From positions 20,091 to 84,090 of the forward strand of contig DASVCV010000002.1 in NCBI GenBank assembly GCA_036381415.1: a DNA stretch of 64,000 bases. Reading direction: 5' to 3'. Source of the stretch: Patescibacteria group bacterium. GTDB taxonomy: Bacteria > Patescibacteriota > Microgenomatia > UBA8517. Positions 7,784 through 58,736 of this stretch are shown piece by piece. The position numbers were made by a program, and so were the translations under genes. The notes beneath the pieces are model-generated. The model was not told the DNA's origin, ran no database searches, and saw nothing but the letters and a program-made list of their open reading frames with translations. Numbering within the stretch: position 1 is the stretch's first letter; each line of letters begins with the position of its first letter.

Positions 7784-9207
7784 TATTTTAGCCGTGGGAA
7801 AAGAGGATTACCCTTTTTGATTTTAGGCCCTTTAAATTGTTTTTCTATTTTGTTGGCAGTATCGGGAAGGAAGGGTTTGAGATCTACTGCAATTTGTCTA
7901 ATATCATTAACAAGAAATTCAAGTACTTTTTGAAGTTCTTCTCCTTTTAATTCCCAGACTTTTTTACTATTTATTAGAATGTCTGCTTCTTTTATTTTGT
8001 CCCAAATAAATTTTAAAGCATCGTCAAACTCGTAATTAGAAAGAGCGATATCGATGTCTGGTTCTATATTGGATTTATTTTCTGGAAAACTAAATTTAGA
8101 GTTTTGGGCAAGGGTTGAAATTCTAGAGATTAAATTTCCGAGGCCGTTTGCTAGGTCTGCATTATATGCAGTTTCAAATTTTTCGAAAGTGAAATCGCTG
8201 TCTTCCCATGGATGAATTTTTGCTAGTAGATAATATCTAGTTGCATCAGTTCCATATTTTTCTACTAGTTCATATGGAGAAACCACATTCCCCAAACTTT
8301 TGCTGATTTTTTGCCCATCCTTAGTTACAAAACCATGAATGAAGACTTGTTTAGAGTTTGGAAGACCTGCTGACATTAACATTGCTTGCCAGATAGCTGT
8401 TTGTTGACGAAGGTTATCTTTTCCAGCAAATTGGATTACAGGCCACCATTTTTTAAATTCATTTGCTTTATCAGGCCACCCTATTGCTGAAACATAATTC
8501 ACTAAGGCATCGAACCATACAAACATTACATGTTCTGGATCCCCTGGGACATCTATTCCCCATGGCATTTTGCTTTTCAGTCTTGAAATACTGAAGTCTT
8601 GAAGGCCGTTTTTGACGAATGTTTTTATTTCTTTGTACTTTGATTCGGGAACTACAAAATCTTGGTTTTTTTCATAAAACTTTAGTAATTTATCTTGGTA
8701 TTTGGAAAATTTAAAAAAATAATTTTCTTCTTCGTATATTTCTATTTGTAAGTTTGGATGAATTGGGCATCGATTATCTACAAGTTCTGAGTCGGTTTTT
8801 TCCAGTTCGCATCCTACGCAATACTTAATTTTGTAAAGTTTTTTGTAGATATCTCCATTTTTTAAGCATTTTTCCCAGAATTCTTGAGCTGCTTTTATGT
8901 GGTGTTCATCAGTAGTTCTTATGAAGCTATTGTAGGTCAGATTAAGGGCCTTTTTAAGATTGTCAAACTTGGTTGCGTATTCATTTACATATTGTTGCGG
9001 CTTTTTTCCTTGCTCGATTGCTTTTCTATAGATTTTTAGACCATGCTCGTCTGTTCCAAAGTTAAAAAATACGCTATATCCAGACAACTTTTTGTGCCTG
9101 GCATAGGCATCTGCCTGCACTATTTCAAGTGCAAATCCTATGTGTGGATCAGAGTTGACATACGGTAGTGTTGTTGTTAAGTAGATGTTTTTTGTGCTCA
9201 TGCGCAA
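7783..9207 (-). CDS. metG: Methionyl-tRNA synthetase (minimal form, no C-terminal tRNA-binding appendix).
   Basis: PYVNSDPHIGF (HIGH-class motif), KISKSLGN (KMSKS), and a zinc knuckle CVGCE...CPIH. Confidence 0.9.
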   Translation of the reverse strand: MRMSTKNIYLTTTLPYVNSDPHIGFALEIVQADAYARHKKLSGYSVFFNFGTDEHGLKIYRKAIEQGKKPQQYVNEYATKFDNLKKALNLTYNSFIRTTDEHHIKAAQEFWEKCLKNGDIYKKLYKIKYCVGCELEKTDSELVDNRCPIHPNLQIEIYEEENYFFKFSKYQDKLLKFYEKNQDFVVPESKYKEIKTFVKNGLQDFSISRLKSKMPWGIDVPGDPEHVMFVWFDALVNYVSAIGWPDKANEFKKWWPVIQFAGKDNLRQQTAIWQAMLMSAGLPNSKQVFIHGFVTKDGQKISKSLGNVVSPYELVEKYGTDATRYYLLAKIHPWEDSDFTFEKFETAYNADLANGLGNLISRISTLAQNSKFSFPENKSNIEPDIDIALSNYEFDDALKFIWDKIKEADILINSKKVWELKGEELQKVLEFLVNDIRQIAVDLKPFLPDTANKIEKQFKGPKIKKGNPLFPRLK

Positions 9208-10222
9208 ATTTTAGCATGTCTATACCTTTATAGCCATATATTTTATTCCTATAGTTTATGTTTTTAAGTAATTTTTTACAGTCCCTAATTTTTTCTTTAT
9301 GTTTTAGATGTGGCTTTAAGAGTGTGGCAAAACGATAATTATCTATTTTTCGATCTAGGGTTAAAATCCAATAGTTATGGTTGTGTGAGTAACCATCTTT
9401 TCCTGTGTAGCCTTTTTTGACTCCTAGAAAGATTTTAGGATGAAACTTTCTTTTAGCTAGAAAATTAAATATTTGTTTAAGAATTGCTTTGTTATAGTTC
9501 CCAAGAGAAAATTTTGCAGACTTTTTATCTTTTGTAATGTAAAAACTACCCTCTGCGTCTATAAATCCTGCTAGTATGGATAGAAAAATTTCATTCTTTT
9601 TAAAAACCCAGCTGGGAAATTTTGAGTATTTTTTAAGTAGAAATTCGAAAGAGTTGTCTACACTACATTCAATCTGTTGTTTTCCTGTTTTGTAGGTTTT
9701 ACTTATCCAAATTCTTCCGTATGGAAACAGAAGCCTCTTAATTAATTTGATTTGTTCTGCATGAGTTGAGGCACAATCTATAAGAATTGTTTCACTATTT
9801 TTATACATTTTTCTTACTCTTAGATCACCTATTCTAAACCCAAGAATATATGCTTTTTCCTTTAGGTTTTCTGAAAACGGACGTCTTTTTGTAATAATGT
9901 GTGCTGCTGCTAAACTTTTTATGGGAAGATCATAATTTCTTATTTTTCTATCGATTGTGGAATACGCACACTTGTAAATTTTTGCAATTTTTCTACTAGA
10001 TAATTTTTGTTTAACATATAACTTTTTTAGTTCCTCTTTACTTATATTTGGTCCAGGTATTCCTGATGATCTTAGTGGAATTTCTAATTCTTTTGCTCTT
10101 ATTTCGATAGTTCTTACACTAAAACCTAATAGCTTTGATATTTTTAGTAGATTCCAGTGTTTGTTTATGTAGTAATTTTCTAATAGTTCTTTGGTTATAA
10201 TATTTCTTCTTTTTGTCGGCAT
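9149..10222 (-). CDS. Free-standing double-motif LAGLIDADG homing endonuclease with two N-terminal NUMOD1-like HTH modules.
   Basis: Two dodecapeptide motifs, AYILGFRIGDL and LAGFIDAEGSF, separated by about 90 aa. Two HTH-like repeats (LGFSVRTIEIRAKEL; SRKIAKIYKCAYSTIDRKIR). Very AT-rich compared with its neighbours. The 3' end overlaps the metG start by about 58 nt. Confidence 0.7.
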   Translation of the reverse strand: MPTKRRNIITKELLENYYINKHWNLLKISKLLGFSVRTIEIRAKELEIPLRSSGIPGPNISKEELKKLYVKQKLSSRKIAKIYKCAYSTIDRKIRNYDLPIKSLAAAHIITKRRPFSENLKEKAYILGFRIGDLRVRKMYKNSETILIDCASTHAEQIKLIKRLLFPYGRIWISKTYKTGKQQIECSVDNSFEFLLKKYSKFPSWVFKKNEIFLSILAGFIDAEGSFYITKDKKSAKFSLGNYNKAILKQIFNFLAKRKFHPKIFLGVKKGYTGKDGYSHNHNYWILTLDRKIDNYRFATLLKPHLKHKEKIRDCKKLLKNINYRNKIYGYKGIDMLKFAHEHKKHLLNNNTTVCQL

Positions 10223-21452: not shown

Positions 21453-22577
21453 TTAGAAAGCCCATTGGCCTTTGACAAAAAGAACGGAGAAATAAAGTAG
21501 AAGACAGGAAAAGATTAATACCAAAGGTATAAACACTATTTTTCTTTTTGAAATTAAAGCAAGAAATATAAACAAGGGAGGGATTGAAAGAAGGTATCTT
21601 GGAGTGCTTAAAAGAAAACTTGTTGAGGTAATAAAAAGGATAGAAAGAATATAATAGACCCAGTCTCTTACTTTTAATTTTTTAATTATGAAAGGAATAA
21701 GAGCAAAACATAGAATGGCAAGTCCCCCTTCAAAAAGACCAAGCATGAGTGAATCATGAGTCAGAGGTATTTTAAGAAATCCTAGACTGTTTTTTATACT
21801 AACCCATGGAAAATCAAGATGTTTGTACCAATGAGTTTCTAGAACTTCTTTAAAAGCAAAGATTTTACCAAACAATAACCAATTAACAGCAAGGTAAGTA
21901 GAAATAGAAATAATGAATGGAATTGTTATCAGAACTGAGAGAAGAATTTTTTTCTTTAAATTAATTTTTTCTAGTAGTAAAGAAACAAAAAGAGTGGGTA
22001 GTGTTATTAAGCCCATTGTTCTTGTTAAAAAGGTCAGTGCTCCCGAAAGAGAGGACTCATACCAATTTTTGTTTTGAGAAAAGAAGAAGCAGGATACTAA
22101 AAGGAAAAAGAATAATGATTCTGTATATCCAATTGAAAAAAAGTATGAAGTCGGAAAAATATTAAGAAGCACAAGAGATTTTAAGGCAGTTTGTTCATCG
22201 TAGTCTTTTTTTACAAGAAGGTAGAATACTAAACTTCCTAGAATGAAGAAGAAATTGGATACTAATAAAGCTGAAGTAAATACGTTTTTAATTAGCAAAT
22301 TAGCAAAGGTTACAATTGCAGGATATAGAGGTGGGAAAACTATGAAGTTTGCTTCATCTCCACTTGTTCCATACCAATGTTGGGTTATATATAAATAGTG
22401 AGGAGTGTCCCATCTGTTCCAGGTAGAGTCCAGAAGGATGGGTTTATGTGTTTGATAGCCAACTATTAAAAGGGGAAGAATAAGAATAACAATTCTTCCT
22501 AATCCTATTAGAAGAGCAATGGAGATAAGTTTATGTTTTTCTGACTGTAGTTTAAGCCTTTGCATTAAATGTCTCAT
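21453..22577 (-). CDS. Polytopic membrane protein, probable GT-C-type glycosyltransferase (DUF2029/GT87-like).
   Basis: 11+ TM helices with a conserved acidic/aromatic first loop (WNRWDTPHYLYI). The fold assignment is inferred. Confidence 0.45.
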   Translation of the reverse strand: MRHLMQRLKLQSEKHKLISIALLIGLGRIVILILPLLIVGYQTHKPILLDSTWNRWDTPHYLYITQHWYGTSGDEANFIVFPPLYPAIVTFANLLIKNVFTSALLVSNFFFILGSLVFYLLVKKDYDEQTALKSLVLLNIFPTSYFFSIGYTESLFFFLLVSCFFFSQNKNWYESSLSGALTFLTRTMGLITLPTLFVSLLLEKINLKKKILLSVLITIPFIISISTYLAVNWLLFGKIFAFKEVLETHWYKHLDFPWVSIKNSLGFLKIPLTHDSLMLGLFEGGLAILCFALIPFIIKKLKVRDWVYYILSILFITSTSFLLSTPRYLLSIPPLFIFLALISKRKIVFIPLVLIFSCLLLYFSVLFVKGQWAF

Positions 22578-25151
22578 GCTTTTATACTAAATTCTATGCT
22601 GGGGAAGAAATTTAAACAACTTATTATTCCCAAGAATCTCATTTTATCAGTTTTATTTGTACTTGGAGTAAGGCTTGCCTTTTCACTTCTTCCTAGTTTT
22701 CAGATAGATATGGGGACTTGGCTTGCATGGGCAGGAAGGCTTCGTGATTTAGGGTTTGATAAATTTTACTCTGACACTGTTTGGACTCAATATACTCCTG
22801 GATATTTGTATTGGCTTTGGGTTATGGGAAAGACAGGTATTATTTCAGAAGTTGCAATTAAACTACCAGTAATACTAGCTGATATTGGAGTGGGAGTAAT
22901 TATTTGGAATCTAGTCAGAAAGGTTGGCAAGAATACTGCACTTGCTGCATTTTTTGCATATACGCTTAATCCTGTTGTGATATTTAACGGATCAGTTTGG
23001 GGACAAATTGATGGGATATTTACTTTGTTTTTATTTTTGGCAGTTTATTTGATTAATGAGAAGAAAAGTGTTGTTTTGGGATGGAGTATGTGGGCAATTG
23101 CATTTTTAATAAAGCCGCAGGCTTTTGCTATTTTGCCTTTTCTAGTTCTAATAACTTTAAAGAAATATACTATTAAACAAATTCTAAAAGCAGGGATAGT
23201 TACCCTTCTTCTAATATTGGCACTTTCTATTCCATTTTTCCCAACCAATCCAATCTTTGGGTTACCAGATCTAATAAATAAAATGAGTCTTTACTATCCT
23301 TATACTTCTGTTTTTGCTTTTAATGTTTGGACTTTGGTTGGAATGTGGAAGGCAGACAGCACTACTTTTTTGGGAATACAGTATTTTTATATTGGAATTG
23401 GGATGTATGCTCTTTCACTGTTGTTTCTTTTTTGGAAATTTAGAAATAAATTGGATGAGCAAAAGATAGTTTATTTAGTTGTTGCACTTTCATGGATTGC
23501 TTTCTTTTTGTTTCCAACAAGAGTTCATGAAAGATATCTTTTCCCAGCATATGCATTTTTAATTACAGGATCAGCTCTTTCTAAATCAAAAGCATTATCT
23601 ATTTTTTATGTAGTACTTTCTTTTTTAAACTTTTTAAATTTATACCATCCATATGCCTACTATGCTCAGAATTATTTGGTTTCCAAATGGTTGCTTGATT
23701 TTACTGGGAGTGCTTCAGTTTCAATTGGAATTGGAACTTTCTTAATCTTTTTGGCAATTTCATTTAGCGAGAGATTTAAATTCTTGGAAAAAATAAATAT
23801 TTTCTCAAAGAAAAATAGACGTACAATAAAAAATGATTCTAAAGCGGGTAGATTAGGGAATATTTTTATGGGAGGTAAGGATTATGTATTGGGAATGAAA
23901 AATTTGGAAGTTAAGAAAGTAAATTTGCCTCATATTAAATTAACTAAAAAACAAATAAATATCCTTTTAGGAGTAGTAATTGCATTTTCTTTTGTAACAC
24001 GAGTATTTATGTTAGCTAATCCACCTCAGGAATATTTTGATGAGGTATATCATGCATTTACTGCAAGGCAAATGCTGCATGGAAATAAAATGGCTTGGGA
24101 GTGGTGGAACACACCCCCTGTTGGGTTTGCATATGAGTGGACACATCCACCTTTAGCTAAAGAAGGAATGGTTTTGGGAATGTTGGTATTTGGAGAAAAT
24201 CCATTTGGATGGAGAATACCTGGAGCACTTTTGGGGGTGGGAAGTGTAATACTTATCTACTTAATTGCCAGAAAACTTTTTGAGGATGATTTGGCAGGAG
24301 TACTTGCAGCAGGAGTATTTAGCTTAGATGGATTACCCCTTGTACTATCTAGGATTGGGATGAATGACAGCTACTTTTTATTTTTTGCGCTGACTTCAAT
24401 TTATTTTTACTTAGATAATAAAAATAGACTATTTAAAAATAGTAATAACTTTTTGGCTGCATTAACATTTGGGTTGTCCCTTGCTTCTAAATGGAGTGCT
24501 TTATGGGCCATTCCTATCTATGTTGCAATACATTTTCTTTTAAAGAGAAAATTAACTATCTCATATCTGTGGTTTTTGGTCTTACCTCCTTTAGTTTATG
24601 TTGCAACCTATATTCCCATGTTTATCAGCGGACATAATTTCTCAATATTTATTGAGATGCAAAAACAGATGTGGTGGTATCACACTAATTTGCGTGCCAC
24701 TCACCCGTACACATCTCCCTGGTGGAGCTGGCCATTTTTAGTCAGGCCAATCTGGCTTTATACAAGCGGAAGATTAGGAGACACTATTTCAAACATCTAT
24801 GCGATGGGGAATCCAGTTGTATTTTGGTTTGGATTAGGGGCAGTTGTTGTAACGGCAGTGAAAGGGTTAATGGAAAGGAGCAAGAAATTAATATTGGTTG
24901 CATTTGCATATTTAATTTTCTTTGTACCTTGGGCACTATCTCCAAGAATAATGTTTTTGTACCACTATCTTCCTTCAATTCCATTTTTGGCAATTGCAAC
25001 TGGGTATGTTTTAAGAAAGCATAAAGAACTCATTGCTCCTGTATTTATTGTAGGACTTGTTACTTTTATTTACTTTTACCCACATTTAATTGCAATGAAA
25101 GTTCCAGTTGTATTTGATTCTTCATACTATTGGTTTGATAGCTGGAGATAA
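22569..25151 (+). CDS. Fused 860-aa membrane glycosyltransferase. N-terminal GT-C/DUF2029-like half, C-terminal PMT (GT39) family protein O-mannosyltransferase-like half.
   Basis: The C-terminal half carries PPQEYFDEVYHAFTARQ (PMT DE motif) and a PMT_2-like distal region. 20+ TM helices overall. Overlaps the divergent GT-C gene start. Confidence 0.65.
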   Translation: MSHAFILNSMLGKKFKQLIIPKNLILSVLFVLGVRLAFSLLPSFQIDMGTWLAWAGRLRDLGFDKFYSDTVWTQYTPGYLYWLWVMGKTGIISEVAIKLPVILADIGVGVIIWNLVRKVGKNTALAAFFAYTLNPVVIFNGSVWGQIDGIFTLFLFLAVYLINEKKSVVLGWSMWAIAFLIKPQAFAILPFLVLITLKKYTIKQILKAGIVTLLLILALSIPFFPTNPIFGLPDLINKMSLYYPYTSVFAFNVWTLVGMWKADSTTFLGIQYFYIGIGMYALSLLFLFWKFRNKLDEQKIVYLVVALSWIAFFLFPTRVHERYLFPAYAFLITGSALSKSKALSIFYVVLSFLNFLNLYHPYAYYAQNYLVSKWLLDFTGSASVSIGIGTFLIFLAISFSERFKFLEKINIFSKKNRRTIKNDSKAGRLGNIFMGGKDYVLGMKNLEVKKVNLPHIKLTKKQINILLGVVIAFSFVTRVFMLANPPQEYFDEVYHAFTARQMLHGNKMAWEWWNTPPVGFAYEWTHPPLAKEGMVLGMLVFGENPFGWRIPGALLGVGSVILIYLIARKLFEDDLAGVLAAGVFSLDGLPLVLSRIGMNDSYFLFFALTSIYFYLDNKNRLFKNSNNFLAALTFGLSLASKWSALWAIPIYVAIHFLLKRKLTISYLWFLVLPPLVYVATYIPMFISGHNFSIFIEMQKQMWWYHTNLRATHPYTSPWWSWPFLVRPIWLYTSGRLGDTISNIYAMGNPVVFWFGLGAVVVTAVKGLMERSKKLILVAFAYLIFFVPWALSPRIMFLYHYLPSIPFLAIATGYVLRKHKELIAPVFIVGLVTFIYFYPHLIAMKVPVVFDSSYYWFDSWR

Positions 25152-25290: not shown

Positions 25291-26019
25291 TTAGAGAGCT
25301 AGTATTACTGCTCCTATTAGAAGGACTATACCTCCTGCAATTGCAAGCCAGGTTGGAGTTGATACTCCAGCTTGTGGAAGAGCAGGTGCAGGGGTTGCCA
25401 CTGTTGGTTTTGGTGTTGCAACTACAGTGGGAGTTGGGGTGGCAAGTGCGACAGGCGTAGGTGTTGGAGTTGCGCATACGCAAGTTGTGCTTGTAGTACA
25501 TGATGGGTTTCTACAAACACCTGTAGTTCCAGAAGTTATATAGCAGGTCATTCCAGACTGACAGTTTGCATCAGATCCGCAAGTTCCACCGCATGCATTG
25601 GGTACCCCTGGCGTTGCAGTAGGAGTTGGAGTTGCAGTCGGGGTTGGTGTTGCAGTTCCTGAGGGAGTAGGAGTTGGAGTTGCAGTTGCAGCAGTAATGG
25701 CAAAACTTGTTGTGCAGATACTTGAAGTGGCTGCACATGCACCATTTACGATGTTTTGTCCTGAAGGACAACAATAAACTGTTGAACCATTAGCTGGACT
25801 TATACAAGAAGTAGAGCCTGCAATGCTGGTTGCATTACAATTTAATCCTGCAGCACATTGTTCTGCTGCTCCAGGTTTACTGGTGGGTGCAGTTGGTGCA
25901 ACTGATTCTTGTCTTAACTGATATAGCCTTAAAGCAGTAAATACTGCAATTCCTGCAAGAATTACAGTTGCTCCTAGTATTAATATTGTTACTAAATTTT
26001 TCTTTACAAATGCTTGCAT
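25291..26019 (-). CDS. Cys-rich, Pro/Thr-linker-rich surface protein B2. N-terminal signal-anchor, C-terminal LPQAG sorting signal plus hydrophobic tail.
   Basis: N-terminus MQAFVKKNLVTILILGATVILAGIAVF. 22 Cys, (TPTP)n linkers, an 8-Cys module NACGGTCGSDANCQSGMTCYITSGTTGVCRNPSCTTSTTCVCA. C-terminus LPQAGVSTPTWLAIAGGIVLLIGAVILAL. Confidence 0.6.
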   Translation of the reverse strand: MQAFVKKNLVTILILGATVILAGIAVFTALRLYQLRQESVAPTAPTSKPGAAEQCAAGLNCNATSIAGSTSCISPANGSTVYCCPSGQNIVNGACAATSSICTTSFAITAATATPTPTPSGTATPTPTATPTPTATPGVPNACGGTCGSDANCQSGMTCYITSGTTGVCRNPSCTTSTTCVCATPTPTPVALATPTPTVVATPKPTVATPAPALPQAGVSTPTWLAIAGGIVLLIGAVILAL

Positions 26020-26023
26020 ATTA

Positions 26024-27520
26024 TTAGAACCATTGGTTTAGAACTTGATGATGTAATTGTCCTGAAACTGTGAAATTGGTGATATTTGTTGGTATTGTGT
26101 ATTCTTCATAGAAATCAGCACTGCTTGGACGCTTAGTGGCTACTTCAGGTTGCAAGGTTCCATTAATAGTGAATCTTGCTTTATCAAATACTCCAGAGGT
26201 TGTTGTACCTGTAAGTGTAAAGCGTATTTTATCTCCTGGTTTTAAAGCCGAAAGCTGAGTTGTGGTTAGAGGATTCCAGTTAGTGTCATAAATTTGTATT
26301 CCAGTGCATGTTGCGGTTGGAGTTGGACCACAGGCTTGTTGTACTTCAGCAGCGGTTGGGTTTGCTCCTGATGAGTTAAGAACATATGAGTTTCCTTGGT
26401 CACGAGCAACGCAGTTATTTGTTGTCCATCCAGTAGGAAGTGTGTCTGGGACGCAATATGTGGTGTTGTTTGTCCCTGTTCCTACTGTACAACTTGGTCC
26501 AACTATGTATCTACAAACTGAGCCTGTTTGACAAAGGCCAAGAGATGCACTGCATGGATTTCCACAGGCATTTAGGCTACTGCAGTCGCAGTTTCTTCCA
26601 GGAATGGTTTTTCCAATACAGCTTGCATTTTGACAGATCCCTGCAACGCATGTAACAGTTCCACCATTTCCTGCAGCAGCGCAGTCACTTGTTTGAGTAC
26701 ATGCCTGTCCACAGGTTGGTTTAGGAGTGGGAGTAGGTGCTGATCCACCTGCACAAGTTGAAGGATTCCAAACACATGCTCCTTGGGGATTTCTTTGACA
26801 TTCCGAGCCTCTTTCTCCTACACCTGCTTCAACACAAGAGCAGCTTCCGCAAGCTCCCCATCCTGGCTGGATTGTTGGAGCTGGGGCTGTTGAACTTGTT
26901 GGAGTAGGTGAAGGTGGGACATAACCGCTTGTGCTACATTGTCCAGATGTAGCTGCGGGACAACCAGACTGGCATCCACAAGAGCTGTTTTGGGATACAC
27001 AATTTACAGTTCCGTCAGAATTGTAGAAACAATTATCGCATTTGTTTGCATTGAATTTATCTCCACATCCAGCAAATCCTCCAGGAGTGTTGTTTGATGC
27101 TCCGCCACAGGCGTCAAGTCTAACACAAGGTCCGTAAGTGTTGTTTGCTTGGCATACTACTCCTGTTCCAGCTCCATTACATTCAATACAGGATTGTTCA
27201 CCTGGGTTAACACATGATGCTCCTGGTGCTGCGCCTCCACCAGCTGCCTTCTGTTTAAAAATTTGCTGTTGTTGAACTAGGAGTAGTCCTGCTCCAACTC
27301 CTACTACTAAGAGAACTAGTCCAAGAATGGTTGGAATGAGTGCCCTTCTTCTGGGTGACGGTGGGGCAAAGTCTGTTTGTGGTGGAGTTGTAATGTTAGT
27401 GTCAGCTGGTCCTCCTGCACCTGTTTCAGGAGGAGTTTCTGTTGGAAAAGTTGGATTTGTCCCTGGGTCACTTGGCGCGATTGTGTTGGTGGAATTTTGA
27501 GGGCTGGTATTATCTTGCAT
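26024..27520 (-). CDS. Large Cys-rich surface protein A2. N-terminal Pro/Thr-rich segment plus signal-anchor, about 45 Cys, and a conserved C-terminal beta-rich domain.
   Basis: PRRRALIPTILGLVLLVVGVGAGLLLV anchor. Many CxC / CxxC disulfide-type spacings. The C-terminal IYDTNWNPLTTTQLSALKPGDKIRFTLTGTTTSGVFDKARFTINGT domain is shared with the 28342..30033 ORF. Confidence 0.6.
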   Translation of the reverse strand: MQDNTSPQNSTNTIAPSDPGTNPTFPTETPPETGAGGPADTNITTPPQTDFAPPSPRRRALIPTILGLVLLVVGVGAGLLLVQQQQIFKQKAAGGGAAPGASCVNPGEQSCIECNGAGTGVVCQANNTYGPCVRLDACGGASNNTPGGFAGCGDKFNANKCDNCFYNSDGTVNCVSQNSSCGCQSGCPAATSGQCSTSGYVPPSPTPTSSTAPAPTIQPGWGACGSCSCVEAGVGERGSECQRNPQGACVWNPSTCAGGSAPTPTPKPTCGQACTQTSDCAAAGNGGTVTCVAGICQNASCIGKTIPGRNCDCSSLNACGNPCSASLGLCQTGSVCRYIVGPSCTVGTGTNNTTYCVPDTLPTGWTTNNCVARDQGNSYVLNSSGANPTAAEVQQACGPTPTATCTGIQIYDTNWNPLTTTQLSALKPGDKIRFTLTGTTTSGVFDKARFTINGTLQPEVATKRPSSADFYEEYTIPTNITNFTVSGQLHHQVLNQWF

Positions 27521-27597
27521 TTAATTTTTTATGAATATGAAGCTAGTCATTTCTAGCCCTATACCCATCATAGAAAGAGCTAGAGCTGGTGTCAAGT
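27521..27597 (-). pseudogene. Remnant copy of the 3' end (sorting-signal-encoding tail) of the 30045..31382 gene. It marks the junction of the tandem duplication.
   Basis: Translates to ...LTPALALSMMGIGLEMTSFIFIKN*, cf. ...DLTPTLALSMMGIGLVVTSFILWKKLEI* at the true gene end. About 70 nt of DNA are near-identical to 30069..30130. Confidence 0.55.
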
Positions 27598-27615
27598 AAA
27601 TTGTTTGTAAATTCT

Positions 27616-28332
27616 TTAGAGAGCAAGTATTACTGCTCCTATTAGAAGGACTATACCTCCTGCAATTGCAAGCCAGGTTGGAGTTGATACTCCAGCTTGG
27701 GGAAGAGCAGGTGCAGGGGTTGCAACTGTTGGTGTAGGAGTTGCAACTGCAATAGGTGTAGGAGTTGGGGTTGGTGTTGCACATACGCAAGTTGTGCTTG
27801 TAGTACATGATGGGTTTCTACATACTCCTGTAGTTCCAGAAGTTATATAACAGGTCATTCCAGATTGACAGTTTGCATCAGATCCGCAAGTTCCATTACA
27901 TGCATTTGGTGCTCCAGGTGTTGGAGTAGGAGTGGGTGTAGGAGTTGGAGTTGGTGTAGGTGTAGCTGTTGCACAAACACAGTTTGAGTTTGATGCACAG
28001 GATGGATTTACACAGATGTTGTTTCCAGATACTGTTTGGCAAGTTAGACCAGTTGGACAATTTGATTGACCACCTGGAGTAGTACAAGCTTCATAGCATT
28101 GAGGTACTGGTGTAGGAGTAGGAGTTGGTGTTTCAGCAGTAAGTGTAAAGGACAGTGCTTGGCAAGCAGGGTTTACTTGAGCACCTGGATTACTAGTAGG
28201 AGCAGCAGGAGAAACAGACTCTTGTCTTAACTGATATAGCCTTAAAGCAGTAAATACTGCAATTCCAGCAAGTATTACAGTTGCTCCTAGTATTAATATT
28301 GTTACTAAATTTTTCTTTACAAATGCTTGCAT
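27616..28332 (-). CDS. Cys-rich, Pro/Thr-linker-rich surface protein B1 (paralog of B2). Two copies of the 8-Cys module and an LPQAG sorting signal.
   Basis: N-terminal 40 aa and C-terminal about 95 aa are identical or near-identical to B2. The first domain is replaced by a second 8-Cys module (CYEACTTPGGQSNCPTGLTCQTVSGNNICVNPSCASNSNCVCA). Confidence 0.6.
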   Translation of the reverse strand: MQAFVKKNLVTILILGATVILAGIAVFTALRLYQLRQESVSPAAPTSNPGAQVNPACQALSFTLTAETPTPTPTPVPQCYEACTTPGGQSNCPTGLTCQTVSGNNICVNPSCASNSNCVCATATPTPTPTPTPTPTPTPGAPNACNGTCGSDANCQSGMTCYITSGTTGVCRNPSCTTSTTCVCATPTPTPTPIAVATPTPTVATPAPALPQAGVSTPTWLAIAGGIVLLIGAVILAL

Positions 28333-28341
28333 ATTATTTTT

Positions 28342-30033
28342 TTAATTCCATGTATTTAACGCTGCATGGTGAATTTGTGCTGTTACTGTGAAACTTGTTA
28401 CACCTACTGGAATTGTGTACTCATCATAGAACTCTTGAGTTGCTGCTGGTTTGGTTGTTGTTACTTCTGGTCTTAAGGTTCCATTAATAGTAAATCTTGC
28501 TTTATCAAATACTCCAGATGTGGTTGTTCCAGTTACAGTAAATCTAACCTTGTCTCCTGCTTTAAGAGCTGATAATTGAGTGGTTGTAAGCAGATTCCAG
28601 TTTGTGTCATATGCTTTTACAGCCTGACATTGTGCAGTGGAAGGAGCGGTTGATCCAGGAGGGTTGGTTGGTGTTGTTCCTCCACCAGTAGTTGGAGTAG
28701 TTGGTGCTTCAATGGTGCCAGCTGGTGCGGCGCAGGACTGGCGGTCGGCATCGTATGAACAAGATATGGTTCCATTGTTGCAGAAGCAGTCGTAATTGCT
28801 TGGTTGGTTGTAATGGTCACCGCAACCTGCAAATCCTCCACTGCCGACTGTGCGGCCATCATATACTCTACATGTGTTGCCAGTAGTTGGGGGAGTGCTC
28901 CCATTACAAGTGTGTGTTGTTTCGTTACAATCACCGCTTAAACAACTTGTGTCGTATATACAAGTTGCTCCGTCTGGCCTGTTGCCGATCTCACCGCAGC
29001 GGTCTGTACGGATACAATCCCATTGACCAAGAGCGTTACAGTATGCTTGTTGAGTTGGACCTGCGCCTCCTGCTGGTTCTCCGTTTGCACCACTACAGTC
29101 TCCGCAAGCTTTTCTGTCTCCTGTGGTACATACTCTTCCTGTAGCATTTGAATAACCTCCGCAGGCTATTAATGTACCAGCGTTGCCGTAGCAGACTTTC
29201 TGTCCGGATTTAACTGTTCCTGCAATACAGGTAATACAATGAAGTGGACTTGAGCAGTTTGCATCTGAGGTACAAGTATCGCCTTCCCCACCTGTTGTTG
29301 TGCCTCCTGGAGTTGTACCTCCGCCGCTGGTGGTTGCAGTTGGACAGCTTTCACCTGCTGGACAACATCTACCTAGATAGCTTCCATTAGATTGTTGACA
29401 ACCTGCACCTGGATATACATAAGTCCATCCTGTAGCTGGGCATTGTCCACGATCAGAACCACTTGATCCAGTACACCAAGCACCTGCAGGAGCCGTTGGT
29501 TGAGTTCCTCCACTACTTGGTTGAGAACACATGCCAAGAGTGTTGCTGCATCCAACTGCAGATCCTCCACCACCTGAACAGTTCCAGTTGTAGTTTCCAG
29601 GACATTCTCCTCTATTACCTACTCTACAATCTCCAGTACACCAGCCGCCTGCTCTTTGATTTAGAAGCTGTTGTCTTTGAGTAAGTGCTAATCCTGCTCC
29701 AACTCCTACTACTAAAAGAACTAATCCAAGAATTGTTGGAATGAGTGCCCTTCTTCTTGGTGAAGGAGGGGCAAAGTCTGTTTGTGGCGGGGTTGAAATT
29801 CCAGAATCAGGTGGAACTCCTCCTCCATTGCCTGTATCTTGTGGTGTTTCTGTTGGGAAGGTTGGACTTGTATCTGCTGGTTGAGTGGTAGTTGTGGTTG
29901 TTGTTTCTGTAACTGTTACAGGTGGTACAGATAATGGCTGGTCTGTAAGAGTTGGTGGAGTACTCGTACTTTGATCAGTAGGAAATGTAGGATTAGTAGA
30001 AGTATTTTGTTGATTTAGAGTACTATCTTGCAT
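28342..30033 (-). CDS. Large Cys-rich surface protein A1 (paralog of A2).
   Basis: Same N-terminal anchor (PRRRALIPTILGLVLLVVGVGAGLAL) and C-terminal domain as A2. A different Cys-rich central region of about 50 Cys, and a longer poly-Thr N-terminal segment. Confidence 0.6.
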   Translation of the reverse strand: MQDSTLNQQNTSTNPTFPTDQSTSTPPTLTDQPLSVPPVTVTETTTTTTTQPADTSPTFPTETPQDTGNGGGVPPDSGISTPPQTDFAPPSPRRRALIPTILGLVLLVVGVGAGLALTQRQQLLNQRAGGWCTGDCRVGNRGECPGNYNWNCSGGGGSAVGCSNTLGMCSQPSSGGTQPTAPAGAWCTGSSGSDRGQCPATGWTYVYPGAGCQQSNGSYLGRCCPAGESCPTATTSGGGTTPGGTTTGGEGDTCTSDANCSSPLHCITCIAGTVKSGQKVCYGNAGTLIACGGYSNATGRVCTTGDRKACGDCSGANGEPAGGAGPTQQAYCNALGQWDCIRTDRCGEIGNRPDGATCIYDTSCLSGDCNETTHTCNGSTPPTTGNTCRVYDGRTVGSGGFAGCGDHYNQPSNYDCFCNNGTISCSYDADRQSCAAPAGTIEAPTTPTTGGGTTPTNPPGSTAPSTAQCQAVKAYDTNWNLLTTTQLSALKAGDKVRFTVTGTTTSGVFDKARFTINGTLRPEVTTTKPAATQEFYDEYTIPVGVTSFTVTAQIHHAALNTWN

Positions 30034-30044
30034 CTTTTATTTTT

Positions 30045-31382
30045 TTATATTTCTAACTTTTTCCAAAGTATGAAGCTAGTCACTACTAGCCCTATACCCA
30101 TCATAGAAAGAGCTAGAGTAGGAGTCAAGTCACCAGACACTGGAATGGCACTCCCCGTGGCTGGAAGAGTAATTCTTGTTGTCCCAGATGTTGTTGAAAC
30201 AGGGGTTGGAGTTGGTGTTGGAATGGGAGTGGGTGTTGGAATAGGTGTAGCAGAACCAGATGCAACAAAAGCTGGTCCTTCAGAAGCTTGAACAACAAAT
30301 GTTTTTGTTAAGGTTTGCAGAATTCCTTGGGCGTCTGTCCAGGAAACTGAAAGAGTGTGAGTTCCTGGATCTAGATTTGCAGGTGGATTCCAGGTCCAGG
30401 TTCCATCAGCAGCAGCTGTAACTGTTGCCGTTTGGGGAGTGGACCTGACAGTAATAGTAATTTTTGTATTAGGAGTGGCAGTTCCCATGATTTGAGGTTT
30501 AGCAGTGGAAATTATTTCGCCATCTTTGATACTTGTAACGGTTACAGTTTTTGTTGTTCCTGAGGTTGTAGCAGTATTTCCTAAGTTAAAACCTGCTGAT
30601 GAAGTTGCTGTGTCAGGCAAATTAAGATTTGATTGAGGATTTCCTCCTTCGGTGTTACCAGGATTACTTCTAAAATCATATGTTTGTCCAAGTTTGATAA
30701 CAGGAGTTGGGTTGGCTGATTTAGGATAGATTTGAGCAGTTGAGACTCCACTTACTCCACCTTGAACAAAAATTTGAAGAAGAGTGGAGTCTGGGGAAAT
30801 AGTTGCATAACTTGTGAGATCTGGTTTAAGTGCAGTGCTAATTGGAATTACCCAATTACCGTTAGCTGAAGTTAAGGCAGACATTGGGTTAAATCCAGTT
30901 CCATTTACATAGACCAGAACTTCTGGAGCTGGAAGGCCACCTGCATCTTCAACTGTTCCTGATATCAAGATCTGAGTAGGAAGAGTGGATGTTGTTTGTG
31001 AGGCAGTTTGGGTGTTCCAAGGGATTCCTGAGTTGTCATAATCAGAGCCAGCTGAATTAATTTTAAAATAGTAGGGAGTTGATGGACTTAAGGTAGTTAC
31101 TTGGACCCAATGAATGGTGGTAGCAGTTTGGGAAGCAAGTGTTGTCTGGCTTAAACTGTCTTGACTTACCCCATATTTGACATATCCAACGGTTGGTTTG
31201 TCAGTAATCCAAGAAATTGCAAAAGAAGAGGAAGATTGGTTTGTTATTCTTACATCTTGGGGTGCAACATCAGGAGAAGCACCAAGCTTAAATTGCTTGG
31301 ATGTTGCAACAAGAAAAATACCTGCTCCCATACCAAGTACAAGAACTAGTATTCCTATTAGTGTTGGGATTTTCCCTCTCAT
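30045..31382 (-). CDS. LPXTG-anchored multi-domain surface protein (Fn3-like, CarboxypepD_reg-like and Ig-like domains, PT-rich stalk).
   Basis: N-terminal signal MRGKIPTLIGILVLVLGMGAGIFLV. Fn3-like region SFAISWITDKPTVGYVKYG...YYFKINSAG. Ig-like region DGTWTWNPPANLDPGTHTLSVSWTD. (PTPTPIPTPTPTP) stalk. C-terminal LPATG plus hydrophobic segment plus KKLEI, a canonical sortase signal. Confidence 0.65.
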   Translation of the reverse strand: MRGKIPTLIGILVLVLGMGAGIFLVATSKQFKLGASPDVAPQDVRITNQSSSSFAISWITDKPTVGYVKYGVSQDSLSQTTLASQTATTIHWVQVTTLSPSTPYYFKINSAGSDYDNSGIPWNTQTASQTTSTLPTQILISGTVEDAGGLPAPEVLVYVNGTGFNPMSALTSANGNWVIPISTALKPDLTSYATISPDSTLLQIFVQGGVSGVSTAQIYPKSANPTPVIKLGQTYDFRSNPGNTEGGNPQSNLNLPDTATSSAGFNLGNTATTSGTTKTVTVTSIKDGEIISTAKPQIMGTATPNTKITITVRSTPQTATVTAAADGTWTWNPPANLDPGTHTLSVSWTDAQGILQTLTKTFVVQASEGPAFVASGSATPIPTPTPIPTPTPTPVSTTSGTTRITLPATGSAIPVSGDLTPTLALSMMGIGLVVTSFILWKKLEI

Positions 31383-31717
31383 GGCGTGGTTCCTCCTGGA
31401 GTTGCTGACTGACTGGCAATTGGAGTTGCTGACTCACTTGCAACGGGTGTTGCAACAGGTGTTGGGGTAGGAAGAGTGGATGCAGTAACGGTATTATTTC
31501 CGATCTGGTCATCACTAAGGTACATTCTTTGTTGTAATTTATTTAGAGCAGCTACGTCAAGAGTGGGATTTAAGGGTGCAACAATTTCAGCAGGTACTGG
31601 GGGAGAAGGCTTTATAGTTAGGGTTCTATAAACCTCAAAAGCAATCCAGAAAAAGATTGTGATTAGGGTAATTATTGCAAGAGTTACTCCTGCTGGTGTT
31701 TTTATTCCTCTTTTCAT
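31379..31717 (-). CDS. Membrane-anchored Pro/Thr-rich protein co-transcribed with pilN/pilO. Possible pilus-associated component.
   Basis: 112 aa: N-terminal TM (MKRGIKTPAGVTLAIITLITIFFWIAF), then a PT/ATP-rich low-complexity tail. ATGA start/stop overlaps with both neighbouring genes. Confidence 0.45.
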   Translation of the reverse strand: MKRGIKTPAGVTLAIITLITIFFWIAFEVYRTLTIKPSPPVPAEIVAPLNPTLDVAALNKLQQRMYLSDDQIGNNTVTASTLPTPTPVATPVASESATPIASQSATPGGTTP

Positions 31718-32379
31718 TTTGTTTGGGCTGTTTGAGCTTCCTGGTAAGGGGCTCTTCCTTCTATGGTTAGATATAAATTTTTAACATTATCAATTTCTGT
31801 TGCAGTAAAATTTAGACTGTCAAAGACAAGAGGACGTCTTAAAAGTTCAATATCTGCAAGGAATGTTGAGATGGTGTTGTAGTCGCCTGCTACTGAAATA
31901 GATACTCCAACCCCTGAACTTCCTTGCGGAAGAGTTTTTCTTTGATCAGGGGGACCTGCAAGAACAGGGGAAGTCCCTGCAAGAGTTATTTGTTCACTTC
32001 CTATGTTTTGAGTAACAACATTATCTTTTTTAATTACTCCTTCAATTTGGCGGATGTATTGACCAAGAGATGGAGATGTGGGAACTGCATCAGAAAGAAG
32101 AGCAATATTTGCCTGTTGGGATGCAAGAATACTCTGAGCTTGCTGAAGGTTTAGGATTTTAGCATCCATTTGTTCTATGGTTTTTTGCTTTTCATTAATT
32201 TCTGTTAAGAGGTTAGAGATGGTAAGGGCAGTTGGCTTAATGGCAAAGATTGAAAAAAGGCCAATAGTAACTATGGAAAGTAGAAGCTCAAGAAAGGCTT
32301 TTAAGTCTGGCCTTCTTTTGTAAAGAGCCATTAAGTTAAATAGATACTGTTGTCCTCTAAAGTAGCTTTTAGGTCCCAT
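31714..32379 (-). CDS. pilO: Type IV pilus assembly protein PilO.
   Basis: Basic N-terminus plus one TM and a coiled coil. C-terminal ISVAGDYNTISTFLADIELLRRPLVFDSLNF is similar to the PilO core. Start uncertain: 32379 or 32331, while the ORF track gives 32484. Confidence 0.65.
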   Translation of the reverse strand: MGPKSYFRGQQYLFNLMALYKRRPDLKAFLELLLSIVTIGLFSIFAIKPTALTISNLLTEINEKQKTIEQMDAKILNLQQAQSILASQQANIALLSDAVPTSPSLGQYIRQIEGVIKKDNVVTQNIGSEQITLAGTSPVLAGPPDQRKTLPQGSSGVGVSISVAGDYNTISTFLADIELLRRPLVFDSLNFTATEIDNVKNLYLTIEGRAPYQEAQTAQTK

Positions 32380-32953
32380 TTGGTTTAGGCGTAGCTGCCA
32401 CTCCTTTCTGTGTAGCAAGAACTTGGAAAGTGATATTGCCTGTTGTTTGGTCAATTGTGGTTTGAGTAAGAGATACTTTATCAAACATATTTGGGATTGC
32501 TTTTAAGTTTGCAATAAATGTACCTGCTCCAACTTCTGAGGTGGAAGTTGCTCTAATTTCAACTGCAGATGCATCTACTGAAAGAAATGTTATTTGGACA
32601 GTATCAGGAAGAGCAGTTGTTAGGGTTTGAAGAAGAGGAATGTATTTGCTTTTGTCATATGCAACAGAAGAGAAAATGGCTAACTCTTTTTGAGCTTCTC
32701 TAAAGTTCTTTTCAACTTGGGCATATGAGGTAATAACTGCCTTTTTTTGATTTATAGCTTCTGTTAGGTCGCTTACTTTGGAGTCAAGCCAGAATCTAGA
32801 GAGAAATGCTCCCATTACGACCATTTCAGTTGCAATGACAATGAGCCTAAATGAAGAAATAAGCCATCTAAAAATTCTTCCTAGAGTGGATGATTCGAAC
32901 TCTTCTTGTGGAAGAAGATTGATCCTTGGTTCTTTAGTGTTGCGGGCAGCCAT
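32369..32953 (-). CDS. pilN: Type IV pilus assembly protein PilN.
   Basis: The hallmark N-terminal INLLP motif (PRINLLPQEE), a single TM, a coiled coil and a C-terminal ALPDTVQITFLSVDASAVEIRATS region. Confidence 0.75.
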   Translation of the reverse strand: MAARNTKEPRINLLPQEEFESSTLGRIFRWLISSFRLIVIATEMVVMGAFLSRFWLDSKVSDLTEAINQKKAVITSYAQVEKNFREAQKELAIFSSVAYDKSKYIPLLQTLTTALPDTVQITFLSVDASAVEIRATSTSEVGAGTFIANLKAIPNMFDKVSLTQTTIDQTTGNITFQVLATQKGVAATPKPNGT

Positions 32954-33019
32954 ACAATTAGAGCCAATGACTATTCAATGGCTACTTCAATATAACATAA
33001 CCGTGAGGTTCACAAAAGA

Positions 33020-33313
33020 TTATTTTTTGGAAGCTTTTTTAGAAGATTTTTTGGGAGCAGCTTTTTTAACTGGCTTAACTGGTTTTGCTAATTTAGAAAG
33101 AGCTGATTTAATTCTTGCTGCTTTATTCTTATGGATTACTTTCTTTTTTGCAGCACGATCTGCAAGAGAAGATGCTTTTTTAATACTTACCTGGCTTTTA
33201 GTTTTCTTTGCTAGTCGTATTGCAGCATCCAAATCCTTTATAATAATTGTGTTAACAGATGCTTTCTGGGCTGACCCTCTTAAAGCTCTTTTGGCTGTTT
33301 TAGTTACAGGCAT
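33020..33313 (-). CDS. rpsT: 30S ribosomal protein S20 with a Lys-rich C-terminal extension.
   Basis: MPVTKTAKRALRGSAQKA...IHKNKAARIKSALSKL matches the S20 signature. Start taken at Met-14 of the listed ORF. Confidence 0.8.
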   Translation of the reverse strand: MPVTKTAKRALRGSAQKASVNTIIIKDLDAAIRLAKKTKSQVSIKKASSLADRAAKKKVIHKNKAARIKSALSKLAKPVKPVKKAAPKKSSKKASKK

Positions 33314-33363
33314 GCCTGAAGTATAATTCAAAATGCTCGTAATTTCAATCAAACACTAAAAAG

Positions 33364-58308: not shown

Positions 58309-58310
58309 TT

Positions 58311-58736
58311 ATGGCAGAGGAGAAGAAAAAGGATTCAGGAGCAACGGGATTTTTAAACAAATACTGGTGGGTTTTACTTGGTGGGTGTGGTTGTATTGTT
58401 GTTATTCCATTTGTTATTGCTTTTGTTGTGGGAGTTTTGTTAGTTGCTGTAAATCCAGCTGCTCAGATTAACAAAGCAAAAGATGCAAGAAGAAGTAATG
58501 ATCAGGTTCATGTGCAAACGGCACTTGAGAGCTACTATATTGATAAGAGTGTATATCCAACTTCTTTAGATGAATTGGTACCGTACTATATGGCTCTTGT
58601 TCCAGTTGAAACTGATTCTCAGGTTGCTCCTTATAAATATACAGTTTTAGATAAAGGGATAAATTATCAGTTTTGTGTAACTTATTCATCTGGTGAGTTT
58701 AAGTGTGTTGACTCCAAAAGCGTTATAGGTAGATAA
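58311..58736 (+). CDS. Type IV pilin / pseudopilin-like protein with an atypical N-terminus.
   Basis: A 29-residue hydrophobic segment followed by AAQINKAKDARRSNDQVHVQTALESYYIDKSVYP (pilin alpha1-beta fold signature). It lacks the canonical G|F-x-x-x-E prepilin site. Confidence 0.5.
   Translation: MAEEKKKDSGATGFLNKYWWVLLGGCGCIVVIPFVIAFVVGVLLVAVNPAAQINKAKDARRSNDQVHVQTALESYYIDKSVYPTSLDELVPYYMALVPVETDSQVAPYKYTVLDKGINYQFCVTYSSGEFKCVDSKSVIGR

Follow-up and report, generated by a model that had tools for sequence, protein, structure and literature searches.

A locus conserved in Candidatus Woesebacteria joins pilN and pilO homologs to genes for four envelope proteins

Gene content of the locus

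The DNA analysed is a 64,000-nucleotide (nt) stretch of contig DASVCV010000002.1 (hereinafter the window) from a Patescibacteria group bacterium of the Microgenomatia. The subject of this study is a cluster of minus-strand genes in the window, which extends from position 33313 down to 25291 and contains homologs of the type IV pilus genes pilN and pilO. The cluster was originally predicted, from the sequence alone, to be one ten-gene operon that runs from rpsT through pilN and pilO into genes for adhesin-like and cysteine (Cys)-rich proteins. The predicted gene order, strand and coordinates are all correct; the number of genes is nine (rpsT, pilN, pilO, p112, p445, A1, B1, A2 and B2), not ten. 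The features of the block are as follows.

33020–33313, minus strand: rpsT, ribosomal protein S20 (Pfam PF01649 Ribosomal_S20p, E=5.8e-11)
32369–32953, minus strand: pilN (PF05137, 29.8 bits vs cutoff 22.8), with INLLPQEEF N-terminus and one transmembrane segment
31714–32379, minus strand: pilO (PF04350 at threshold); its ATG at 32379 overlaps the pilN end by 11 nt
31379–31717, minus strand: p112 (112 amino acids, aa), with one transmembrane segment and a Pro/Thr-rich tail; ATGA overlap with pilO
30045–31382, minus strand: p445 (445 aa), Fn3/Ig-type, with a sorting signal; ATGA overlap with p112
28342–30033, minus strand: A1, with Pro-rich N-terminus, one transmembrane segment, Cys-rich region and ~95-aa C-terminal domain
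27616–28332, minus strand: B1, with N-terminal transmembrane segment, two 8-Cys modules and LPQAG
27525–27597, minus strand: non-coding relic of the p445 3' end with a duplicated promoter, 86% identical to 30058–30130
26024–27520, minus strand: A2, tandem paralog of A1
25291–26019, minus strand: B2, tandem paralog of B1

From rpsT to B2, the junctions measure 66, −11, −4, −4, 11, 9, 95 and 4 nt. Six of the eight agree with the predicted spacing of at most 12 nt or an ATGA overlap, while rpsT–pilN (66 nt) and B1–A2 (95 nt) do not. The protein predicted to be a Pro/Thr-rich anchor is p112, which indeed has one transmembrane segment and a Pro/Thr-rich tail. The protein predicted to combine LPATG with Fn3/Ig domains is p445, which has LPATG near its C-terminus as well as Fn3-like and Big_13 domains.

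Conservation of the locus in Woesebacteria

Related loci (n=86) were obtained from look-ups by identical protein and from one scan of species-representative genomes. Nearly all of them belong to Candidatus Woesebacteria or Microgenomates metagenome-assembled genomes, and nearly all come from separate assemblies. The complete Woesebacteria genomes CP011214.1, CP066686.1, OY970314.1 and OZ246419.1 have the locus. Gene order was read from BLASTP of the window proteins against all open reading frames (ORFs) of the 86 loci, and the statements on gene order cover the loci long enough to display it. Every such locus has the same arrangement, in which hrcA and murJ, pointing away from the cluster, are followed by rpsT, pilN, pilO, p112, p445, A and B and then by a convergent gene of the PMT family. 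The seven-gene order from rpsT to B is thus the same across loci whose PilN proteins are 32–87% identical. Many records with a Woesebacteria-type locus (L007, L008, L010, L011 and others) are titled "uncultured Gammaproteobacteria bacterium" or "Alphaproteobacteria bacterium", which looks like mislabelling in the source records.

The spacing is conserved as well. Median gaps over the loci are 64 nt (rpsT–pilN), 1 nt (pilN–pilO), −4 nt (pilO–p112), −4 nt (p112–p445), 6 nt (p445–A) and 5 nt (A–B). The ATGA overlaps of pilO with p112 and of p112 with p445 are kept across ~70–78 species, and p112 is found in ~79 loci. Most loci have a single A–B pair, and in a few lineages additional genes separate p445 from A.

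As predicted, pilM is not upstream of pilN. Its place is taken by rpsT, in the window and in all 86 related loci. The possibility that a corrected assembly would put pilM there, which the original prediction left room for, is not borne out: the arrangement recurs in the related loci and is no assembly artefact, so the absence of pilM is a lineage trait. In other Patescibacteria, pilB, pilT, pilM and pilC are conserved in most classes (PMC12206443) and are usually co-located with pilN and pilO (PMC6744442), which makes the split arrangement of Woesebacteria unusual. No description of the rpsT-to-B arrangement was found in the literature searched, and the supplements of PMC6744442 and PMC12206443 do not give PilM presence for Woesebacteria.

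Identity of PilN and PilO

By Pfam and ortholog profiles, pilN and pilO of the window are genuine homologs of the genes whose names they were given. Window PilN is 100% identical to a protein from a metagenome-assembled genome labelled "Patescibacteria group bacterium". PF05137 is carried by all but one of 120 listed PilN homologs, and a profile of 21 PilN orthologs matches Myxococcus xanthus PilN (3JC8) with E=4e-7. The match of window PilO to PF04350 is marginal (22.0–22.4 bits, cutoff 22); among its orthologs, 29 of 39 match PF04350 (best E=2.4e-10), and a profile of the 39 matches M. xanthus PilO with E=5.3e-9.

PilN of the window has a short cytoplasmic N-terminus with INLLP, followed by one transmembrane segment (RINLLPQEEF...FRLIVIATEMVVMGAFLSRFWLD), and the predicted INLLP motif is present, within RINLLPQEEF. 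Residues INLLP, E18 and F19 are invariant in 21 diverse PilN orthologs. The INLLPQEEF N-terminus and the transmembrane segment are nearly invariant in orthologs that are only ~40–45% identical overall. The N-terminal INLLP motif of PilN is the PilM-binding element in established type IV pilus systems. The invariance of this N-terminus in the Woesebacteria sequences suggests that a cytoplasmic partner of PilN still exists.

Other pilus genes were not detected nearby. Specifically, Pfam searches of the non-overlapping ORFs of at least 100 aa in the 64-kb window found no pilM, pilB, pilC, pilT or pilD, and a motif scan of the window and 88 loci found neither the GspE Walker A motif nor the G|FTLIE prepilin motif. 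Short contigs reached by walking off both window ends also have no pilus genes. A relaxed motif scan gave two genes, in one locus only (L085, 8642–9945), where they are inserted between rpsT and pilN. Their products begin MxxxKGFTP[IL]ILVVVL..., a prepilin-like N-terminus without Glu5, and the pair is the sole pilin-like feature beside pilN among the 86 loci.

Promoter-like elements and probable transcription units

Consensus scans identified promoter-like elements at three places in the cluster, one of which was duplicated together with A and B. These elements and one predicted hairpin are listed below.

33320–33348, minus strand: sigma-70-like promoter TTGAAA-17-TATACT upstream of rpsT, in the divergent murJ/rpsT spacer
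32989–32997, minus strand: extended −10 motif TGtTATATT, in the 66-nt rpsT–pilN spacer
32962–32985, minus strand: predicted hairpin AGCCAtTGA...TCAtTGGCT of the 5' untranslated region (UTR), between the −10 motif and the pilN ATG
30100–30128, minus strand: promoter-like TTGACT-17-TATGAT, inside the p445 codons for LTPTLALSMMG and 66 nt upstream of A1
27567–27595, minus strand: promoter-like TTGACA-17-TATGAT, in the relic upstream of A2; at 11/12, the best match of the region

Upstream of rpsT, a promoter-like match is present in 70 of 83 related loci. In the rpsT–pilN spacer, the extended −10 motif TGnTATA[TG]T occupies an aligned position in 53/56 cases, and in eight of the 53 loci that bear it the motif is at most 10 nt from the pilN ATG, the spacing of a leaderless mRNA. 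Shine-Dalgarno-like sequences are rare in this set (3 of the 56 spacers).

The pilN leader is predicted to be folded. The 86-nt rpsT–pilN spacer region of the window has a folding energy of −19.3 kcal/mol (z=−2.1), the 35-nt pilN UTR within it −10.1 kcal/mol (z=−3.0), and the pilN UTRs of at least 22 nt in 36 loci have a mean folding z of −1.8 with differing stem sequences. RNAalifold on a MAFFT alignment of the pilN 5' UTRs gave no consensus structure, because MAFFT leaves the hairpins out of register; the predicted leader hairpin is supported by per-sequence folding only. The hairpin was also considered as a terminator and rejected, as it has no U-tract.

TTGAC[AT]-17-TATNAT is found within 150 nt upstream of A in 64/73 cases (88%), 56 of these 64 with 17 nt between the two hexamers, and scores at least 10/12 in 71% of cases. 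The same scan upstream of pilN, pilO, p112, p445 and B gives matches in 10–44%, with at least 10/12 in 1–11%; pilO and p445 of the related loci are not enriched for upstream promoters. The element overlaps the p445 codons for LTPTxxLS(I/M)MG, a part of the sorting signal and membrane anchor. The Leu codon in the LTPT element is TTG in 53/54 cases, compared with 17% of p445 Leu codons, while the neighbouring Pro, Thr and Leu codons vary freely at synonymous sites. Where p445 is missing, a similar element is present in the p112–A spacer (5/6 loci). The p445/A promoter has the look of a dual-coding element preserved by selection at synonymous positions.

Terminator-like sites were not found at any junction by consensus scan of the minus strand, and their overall count does not exceed that of shuffled sequence. 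Transcripts are predicted to begin ~7 nt past the −10 elements, close to 32982, 30093 and 27560 on the minus strand. These patterns suggest that pilN-pilO-p112-p445 and A-B are nested units with promoters of their own, with read-through between them possible. Because conserved elements lie upstream of A and pilN, the Cys-rich genes probably form a separately promoted unit, and rpsT need not belong to the operon. The original prediction, which regarded internal terminators or promoters as the evidence that would split pilN and pilO from the downstream genes, therefore holds in part: promoter-like elements were found and junction terminators were not.

Proteins encoded downstream of pilO

p112 consists of a conserved ~65-aa N-terminal part (...PLxPxLDxxxL...) and a variable tail rich in Pro/Thr or in acidic residues, and has no Pfam or NCBIfam match. 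p445 begins with a transmembrane segment or signal peptide, followed by three beta-sandwich domains, a Pro/Thr linker and a sorting signal. Its Pfam domains are Pur_ac_phosph_N, fn3, CarboxypepD_reg and Big_13. At the C-terminus, p445 orthologs have either [LIV]Px[TS]G or TPETG, followed by LTPT and, after a hydrophobic segment, by a basic tail. In the window protein, IPVSG is at the orthologous motif position, with LPATG 8 residues upstream of it and a hydrophobic segment and KK at the end; p445 has no match to TIGR01167. Neither PilP nor secretin matches were found in p112 or p445 by Pfam and NCBIfam, and the likeness of the two genes to pilP and pilQ is one of gene position only.

The A proteins start with a Pro-rich N-terminus and one transmembrane segment; a highly variable middle with 1–48 Cys then leads to a ~95-aa conserved beta-rich C-terminal domain. 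This domain is present in ~900 representative clusters and lies at the extreme C-terminus in essentially all of 150 listed. Its profile found neither a solved structure nor a Pfam family above threshold, only weak Ig-like matches. Pfam domains in the middle of A are few; 95 representatives have only CARDB (3), VWA (1) and alginate lyase (1). Judging from sequence, these middle-region swaps fit a display scaffold for binding modules.

The B proteins have an N-terminal transmembrane segment that is highly conserved across the family (LAGVAIFTAIRLYQLRQ..VAPNVP; in B1, LAGIAVFTALRLYQLRQ). The motif is confined to B-position genes in the ~1.8 Mb of this neighbourhood, and the idea that it is a generic signal peptide of the lineage was rejected. 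Most B proteins contain 0–3 copies of an unclassified 8-Cys module (C-x3-C-x5-8-C-x5-C-x8-10-C-x4-C-x5-6-C-x-C), with Pro/Thr linkers between copies and Cys counts of 1, 9, 17 and 25 (1+8n). The C-terminus has LPx[SA]G (LPQAG in B1), a hydrophobic segment and "...LLAL", and LPx[TASG]G is kept in 60 of 68 B orthologs.

Class III (prepilin) signal peptides are absent from p112, p445, A and B, so these proteins cannot be pilus tip subunits. Of the two roles originally proposed for the Cys-rich and LPATG proteins, that of tip component is lost, while that of cargo keeps a Gram-positive precedent (PMC11580942).

Tandem duplication of A and B

The 95-nt gap between B1 and A2 contains an 86% copy of the last 73 nt of p445 (27525–27597 vs 30058–30130), and because this relic has the best promoter match of the region, the duplicated unit comprises promoter, A and B. 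Between the two units, nucleotide identity is 77–98% in the transmembrane segment of A and over most of its C-terminal domain, and likewise over most of the two ends of B; it is 30–45%, essentially unrelated, in the Cys-rich middles. Correspondingly, A1 and A2 share the transmembrane segment and C-terminal domain with unrelated Cys-rich middles, and B1 and B2 have near-identical ends with one Cys module replaced. A2-B2 is a recent mosaic tandem copy that took the promoter along.

The sortase neighbourhood and p748

A second region of the window contains a sortase gene and a gene that was originally predicted to encode a PilM/GspL-like actin-fold fusion.

58785–61031, plus strand: p748 (748 aa), with ASKHA N-domain, one transmembrane segment and baseplate-J-like ectodomain; overlaps the sortase gene
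61028–61714, plus strand: sortase (Pfam PF04203, E=2.1e-24)

The actin-like part of the prediction stands, but no PilM- or GspL-type family is detected in p748 by sequence. Its N-terminal 250 residues are modelled by AlphaFold2 with pLDDT 92 as a minimal ASKHA (actin-like) fold. In Foldseek searches with this domain, Pseudomonas aeruginosa PilM has the best TM-score among listed matches (TMq 0.59–0.63, E ~1e-8), PPX/GppA has the best E-value (1e-9), and EutJ and FtsA are comparable to PilM. Sequence searches gave only a weak Baseplate_J match in Pfam and a spurious weak match in NCBIfam, with no T2SSL match in Pfam and no PilM by phmmer against PDB sequences. The nucleotide-binding motifs look degenerate on reading of the sequence.

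The PilN N-terminal peptide is bound in a groove of PilM between subdomains 1A and 1C. By secondary-structure count, the p748 model has two core subdomains only, and it seems to lack the extra subdomain that helps to form this groove. The two-subdomain model thus argues against binding of the PilN N-terminal peptide. The p748 ectodomain (AlphaFold2 pLDDT 86) matches phage and diffocin baseplate wedge proteins (E ~1e-6) and, at similar E, a domain of the Streptomyces galactose-oxidase homologue GlxA; Foldseek gave no match to the ferredoxin-like fold of PilN or GspL. That p748 is a PilM or GspL is not demonstrable, and the protein is best treated as a candidate partner of the cluster.

The p748 family has 621 homologs across Microgenomates at ~45% identity. 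The order alaS-p748-sortase-ruvX is conserved, with p748 always immediately upstream of the sortase gene. The architecture of p748 and its pairing with a sortase appear new to description. The sortase is the likely processing enzyme for p445 and B.

The original prediction also placed a pilin-like gene beside p748. The sortase neighbour is real, but the "pilin-like" ORF of 141 aa is an orphan: a search of 5.8 billion proteins returned only itself. It is a membrane ORF with a sub-threshold GspG match only, and is absent from relatives, in which alaS is ~130–150 codons longer. The alaS gene of the window (56971–58736 region), which the 141-aa ORF follows, encodes 445 aa without the tRNA_SAD part, compared with 574–598 aa in relatives.

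Other features of the window

Envelope enzymes encoded in the window comprise FemAB, sortase, LCP, MurJ and PMT-family proteins. A PMT-family protein O-mannosyltransferase (22569–25151, plus strand) is convergent to the cluster end and present there in nearly all related loci. Further PMT_2 enzymes are encoded at 21453–22577 and 4334–5662, and LCP, two FemAB, MurJ and signal peptidase genes are also nearby. O-glycosylation could plausibly target the Pro/Thr-rich linkers of p112, p445, A and B.

The window has a G+C content of ~35%; the Cys-rich region (25291–30033) has 45%, compared with ~35% elsewhere. An Rfam scan of the window gave no match, and the window contains no tRNAs. At 9149–10222 (minus strand), a 357-aa ORF with LAGLIDADG homing-endonuclease and helix-turn-helix (HTH) matches abuts and overlaps the metG start. 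In three relatives (L087 14585–21652, L088 14577–21605 and L090 2327–6526), a single RNA polymerase gene of ~2,350 aa contains both beta and beta' domains (rpoB-rpoC fusion), located downstream of yceG.

Discussion

The locus is reminiscent of the pilMNOPQ operon of P. aeruginosa and M. xanthus. Specifically, pilN and pilO are adjacent, in the same order and overlapping or abutting; the PilN of Woesebacteria keeps the INLLP motif that binds PilM in pilMNOPQ systems; and the places of pilP and pilQ after pilO are taken by two other envelope genes. Other than that, the two differ. The Woesebacteria locus, from a single-membrane cell, has no pilM and no PilP or secretin homolog, and the genes after pilO encode a small membrane protein with a single pass and an Ig-like protein with a predicted wall anchor of sortase type.

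The pilM-pilN-pilO systems of Clostridium perfringens and Clostridium difficile share the single-membrane setting, and also have sortase and LPXTG proteins with surface-protein operons. In such a Gram-positive type IV pilus system, export of the VWA-domain protein BsaC depends on PilA3, PilM, PilN and PilO, and the export of a folded VWA-domain protein across the C. perfringens peptidoglycan requires PilM, PilN and PilO (PMC11580942). This export is, by analogy, the closest functional precedent for the locus described here, in that PilN and PilO may move or position folded surface proteins across a thick peptidoglycan layer. In the Gram-positive systems, pilM, pilN and pilO are with pilB, pilC and pilins, and the cargo operon is elsewhere; in Woesebacteria, by contrast, pilN and pilO are beside surface-protein genes and apart from any pilM, pilB or pilC.

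Within the same superphylum, loci 1 and 2 of Saccharibacteria TM7x (PMC12206443) and families of the candidate phyla radiation (CPR; PMC6744442) have been described. PilN and PilO are among the CPR-enriched envelope proteins, and sortase is near-ubiquitous in Microgenomates (PMC12206443, PMC6744442). In the described Patescibacteria loci, unlike those of Woesebacteria, pilM, pilN and pilO are co-located with pilB, pilC, pilT, pilD and pilins.

The wall-anchored candidates resemble LPXTG proteins to different degrees. p445 combines [LIV]Px[TS]G with a hydrophobic segment, a basic tail and Ig-like/Fn3 repeats, B has LPx[SA]G ahead of a hydrophobic C-terminus, and the window encodes a sortase. 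Unlike ordinary LPXTG proteins, B has an N-terminal transmembrane segment whose conservation far exceeds that of a usual signal peptide; the LPXTG models stay below their cutoffs, and no pilin motif or isopeptide-type domain was detected. p748, in turn, shares its layout with GspL/GspM of type II secretion: a cytoplasmic domain of degenerate actin-like type is followed by one transmembrane segment and a large outer domain. Unlike GspL, its outer domain resembles the phage baseplate wedge (J/gp6-like), not the ferredoxin-like GspL/PilN fold, and its gene always adjoins sortase, not secretion genes.

We tentatively favour, at somewhat less than even confidence, a model in which PilN and PilO homologs and four envelope proteins are produced from three nested co-directional transcription units with no terminators between them. 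rpsT would be transcribed from its own promoter, pilN-pilO-p112-p445 from the conserved extended −10 promoter as abutting or overlapping genes, and A-B from the promoter embedded in the last p445 codons. PilN and PilO would form their usual heterodimer of single-pass membrane proteins in the platform of a type IV filament, with the invariant INLLP of PilN docking a cytoplasmic PilM-type partner encoded elsewhere. p112 and p445 would be produced in fixed proportion with PilN and PilO as co-translated envelope partners. After sortase cleavage, p445 would be fixed to peptidoglycan, such that p112 and p445 tie the membrane platform to the wall and may play, in a single-membrane cell, the part taken by the PilP/PilQ end of the pilMNOPQ operon. 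A would be anchored in the membrane, its distal domain conserved and its middle variable, of Cys-rich or adhesin type, and B would be a Cys-rich protein with a sortase-type anchor. Both would be surface proteins that diversify fast under a promoter of their own, as adhesins or as cargo, and that are displayed at the platform site or exported through it.

Several observations weigh against this model. No pilin, ATPase, platform-protein or peptidase gene is present in the window or in ~1.8 Mb of related loci, so the link to a pilus comes only from the homology of PilN and PilO. p445 is missing altogether from one subclade. B has no basic tail of the classical LPXTG type and scores 14 bits against the TIGR01167 cutoff of 15.9. 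The promoter scans are consensus matches only. Finally, the flanking hrcA, murJ, PMT and LCP genes are equally syntenic in these small genomes, and conserved order alone is therefore weak evidence of shared function.

The last point is also an argument for mere neighbourhood, namely that PilN and PilO work in an ordinary type IV pilus and its other genes (pilM, pilB, pilC and pilins) are elsewhere, with p112, p445, A and B as unrelated bystanders. The promoter of A-B, the dispensability of p445 in that subclade and the richness of the region in envelope genes (MurJ, PMT, LCP, FemAB and signal peptidase) are consistent with such an arrangement. ATGA overlaps usually mark co-translated partners, and those between pilO and p112 and between p112 and p445 are conserved across species; they are stronger evidence of shared function than conserved order is. 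Together with the lack of promoter enrichment upstream of pilO and p445, they make the bystander explanation unlikely, if far from negligible.

The pair might instead have been co-opted as the scaffold of a non-pilus, sortase-coupled display system, with p748 and sortase as partners and p445 and B as substrates. pilM is never adjacent in the 86 loci, p748 has an ASKHA fold with PilM among the best TM-scores and a fixed place beside sortase across Microgenomates, and p445 and B carry sortase-type signals. Yet the minimal ASKHA fold of p748 has no PilN-groove subdomain by secondary-structure count, PPX/GppA, EutJ and FtsA are matches of about the same quality as PilM, and p748 sits 26 kb from the cluster, in the alaS...ruvX context. 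We consider a co-opted scaffold of this composition quite unlikely. The original idea of a single operon from rpsT to B2, with the Cys-rich and LPATG proteins as parts of the pilus tip or as cargo carried by the pilus, agrees with the co-directional, tightly packed genes, with the lack of terminator-like junction sites and with the Gram-positive precedent for cargo dependent on a type IV pilus (PMC11580942). Its operon part is at odds with the conserved promoter-like elements upstream of pilN and A and with the gaps of 66 and 95 nt among nine, not ten, genes. Its tip part fails for proteins that have no class III signal peptide and hence cannot enter a type IV filament. Taken as a whole, it is very unlikely.

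The favoured model of nested units could be taken one speculative step further. PilN and PilO might no longer be simply part of a pilus but the core of a wall-spanning display apparatus, in which p112 and p445 would be a fixed membrane–peptidoglycan bridge replacing PilP and PilQ, p748 would operate from the cytoplasm, and A/B would be interchangeable cassettes for host attachment. We offer this step with low confidence.

Patescibacteria are thought to live attached to other microbes, with type IV pili and surface adhesins as the foremost candidates for the means of attachment. The promoter inside the sorting-signal codons, held by synonymous-site selection, is a clear case of its kind, predicted and directly testable. 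The locus also supplies a rapidly diversifying family of Cys-rich surface proteins, with ~900 sequence clusters and defined conserved ends. It touches on the question of how a pilus machine is tied to the wall in a single-membrane cell, for which it supplies lineage-conserved candidate partners of PilN and PilO.

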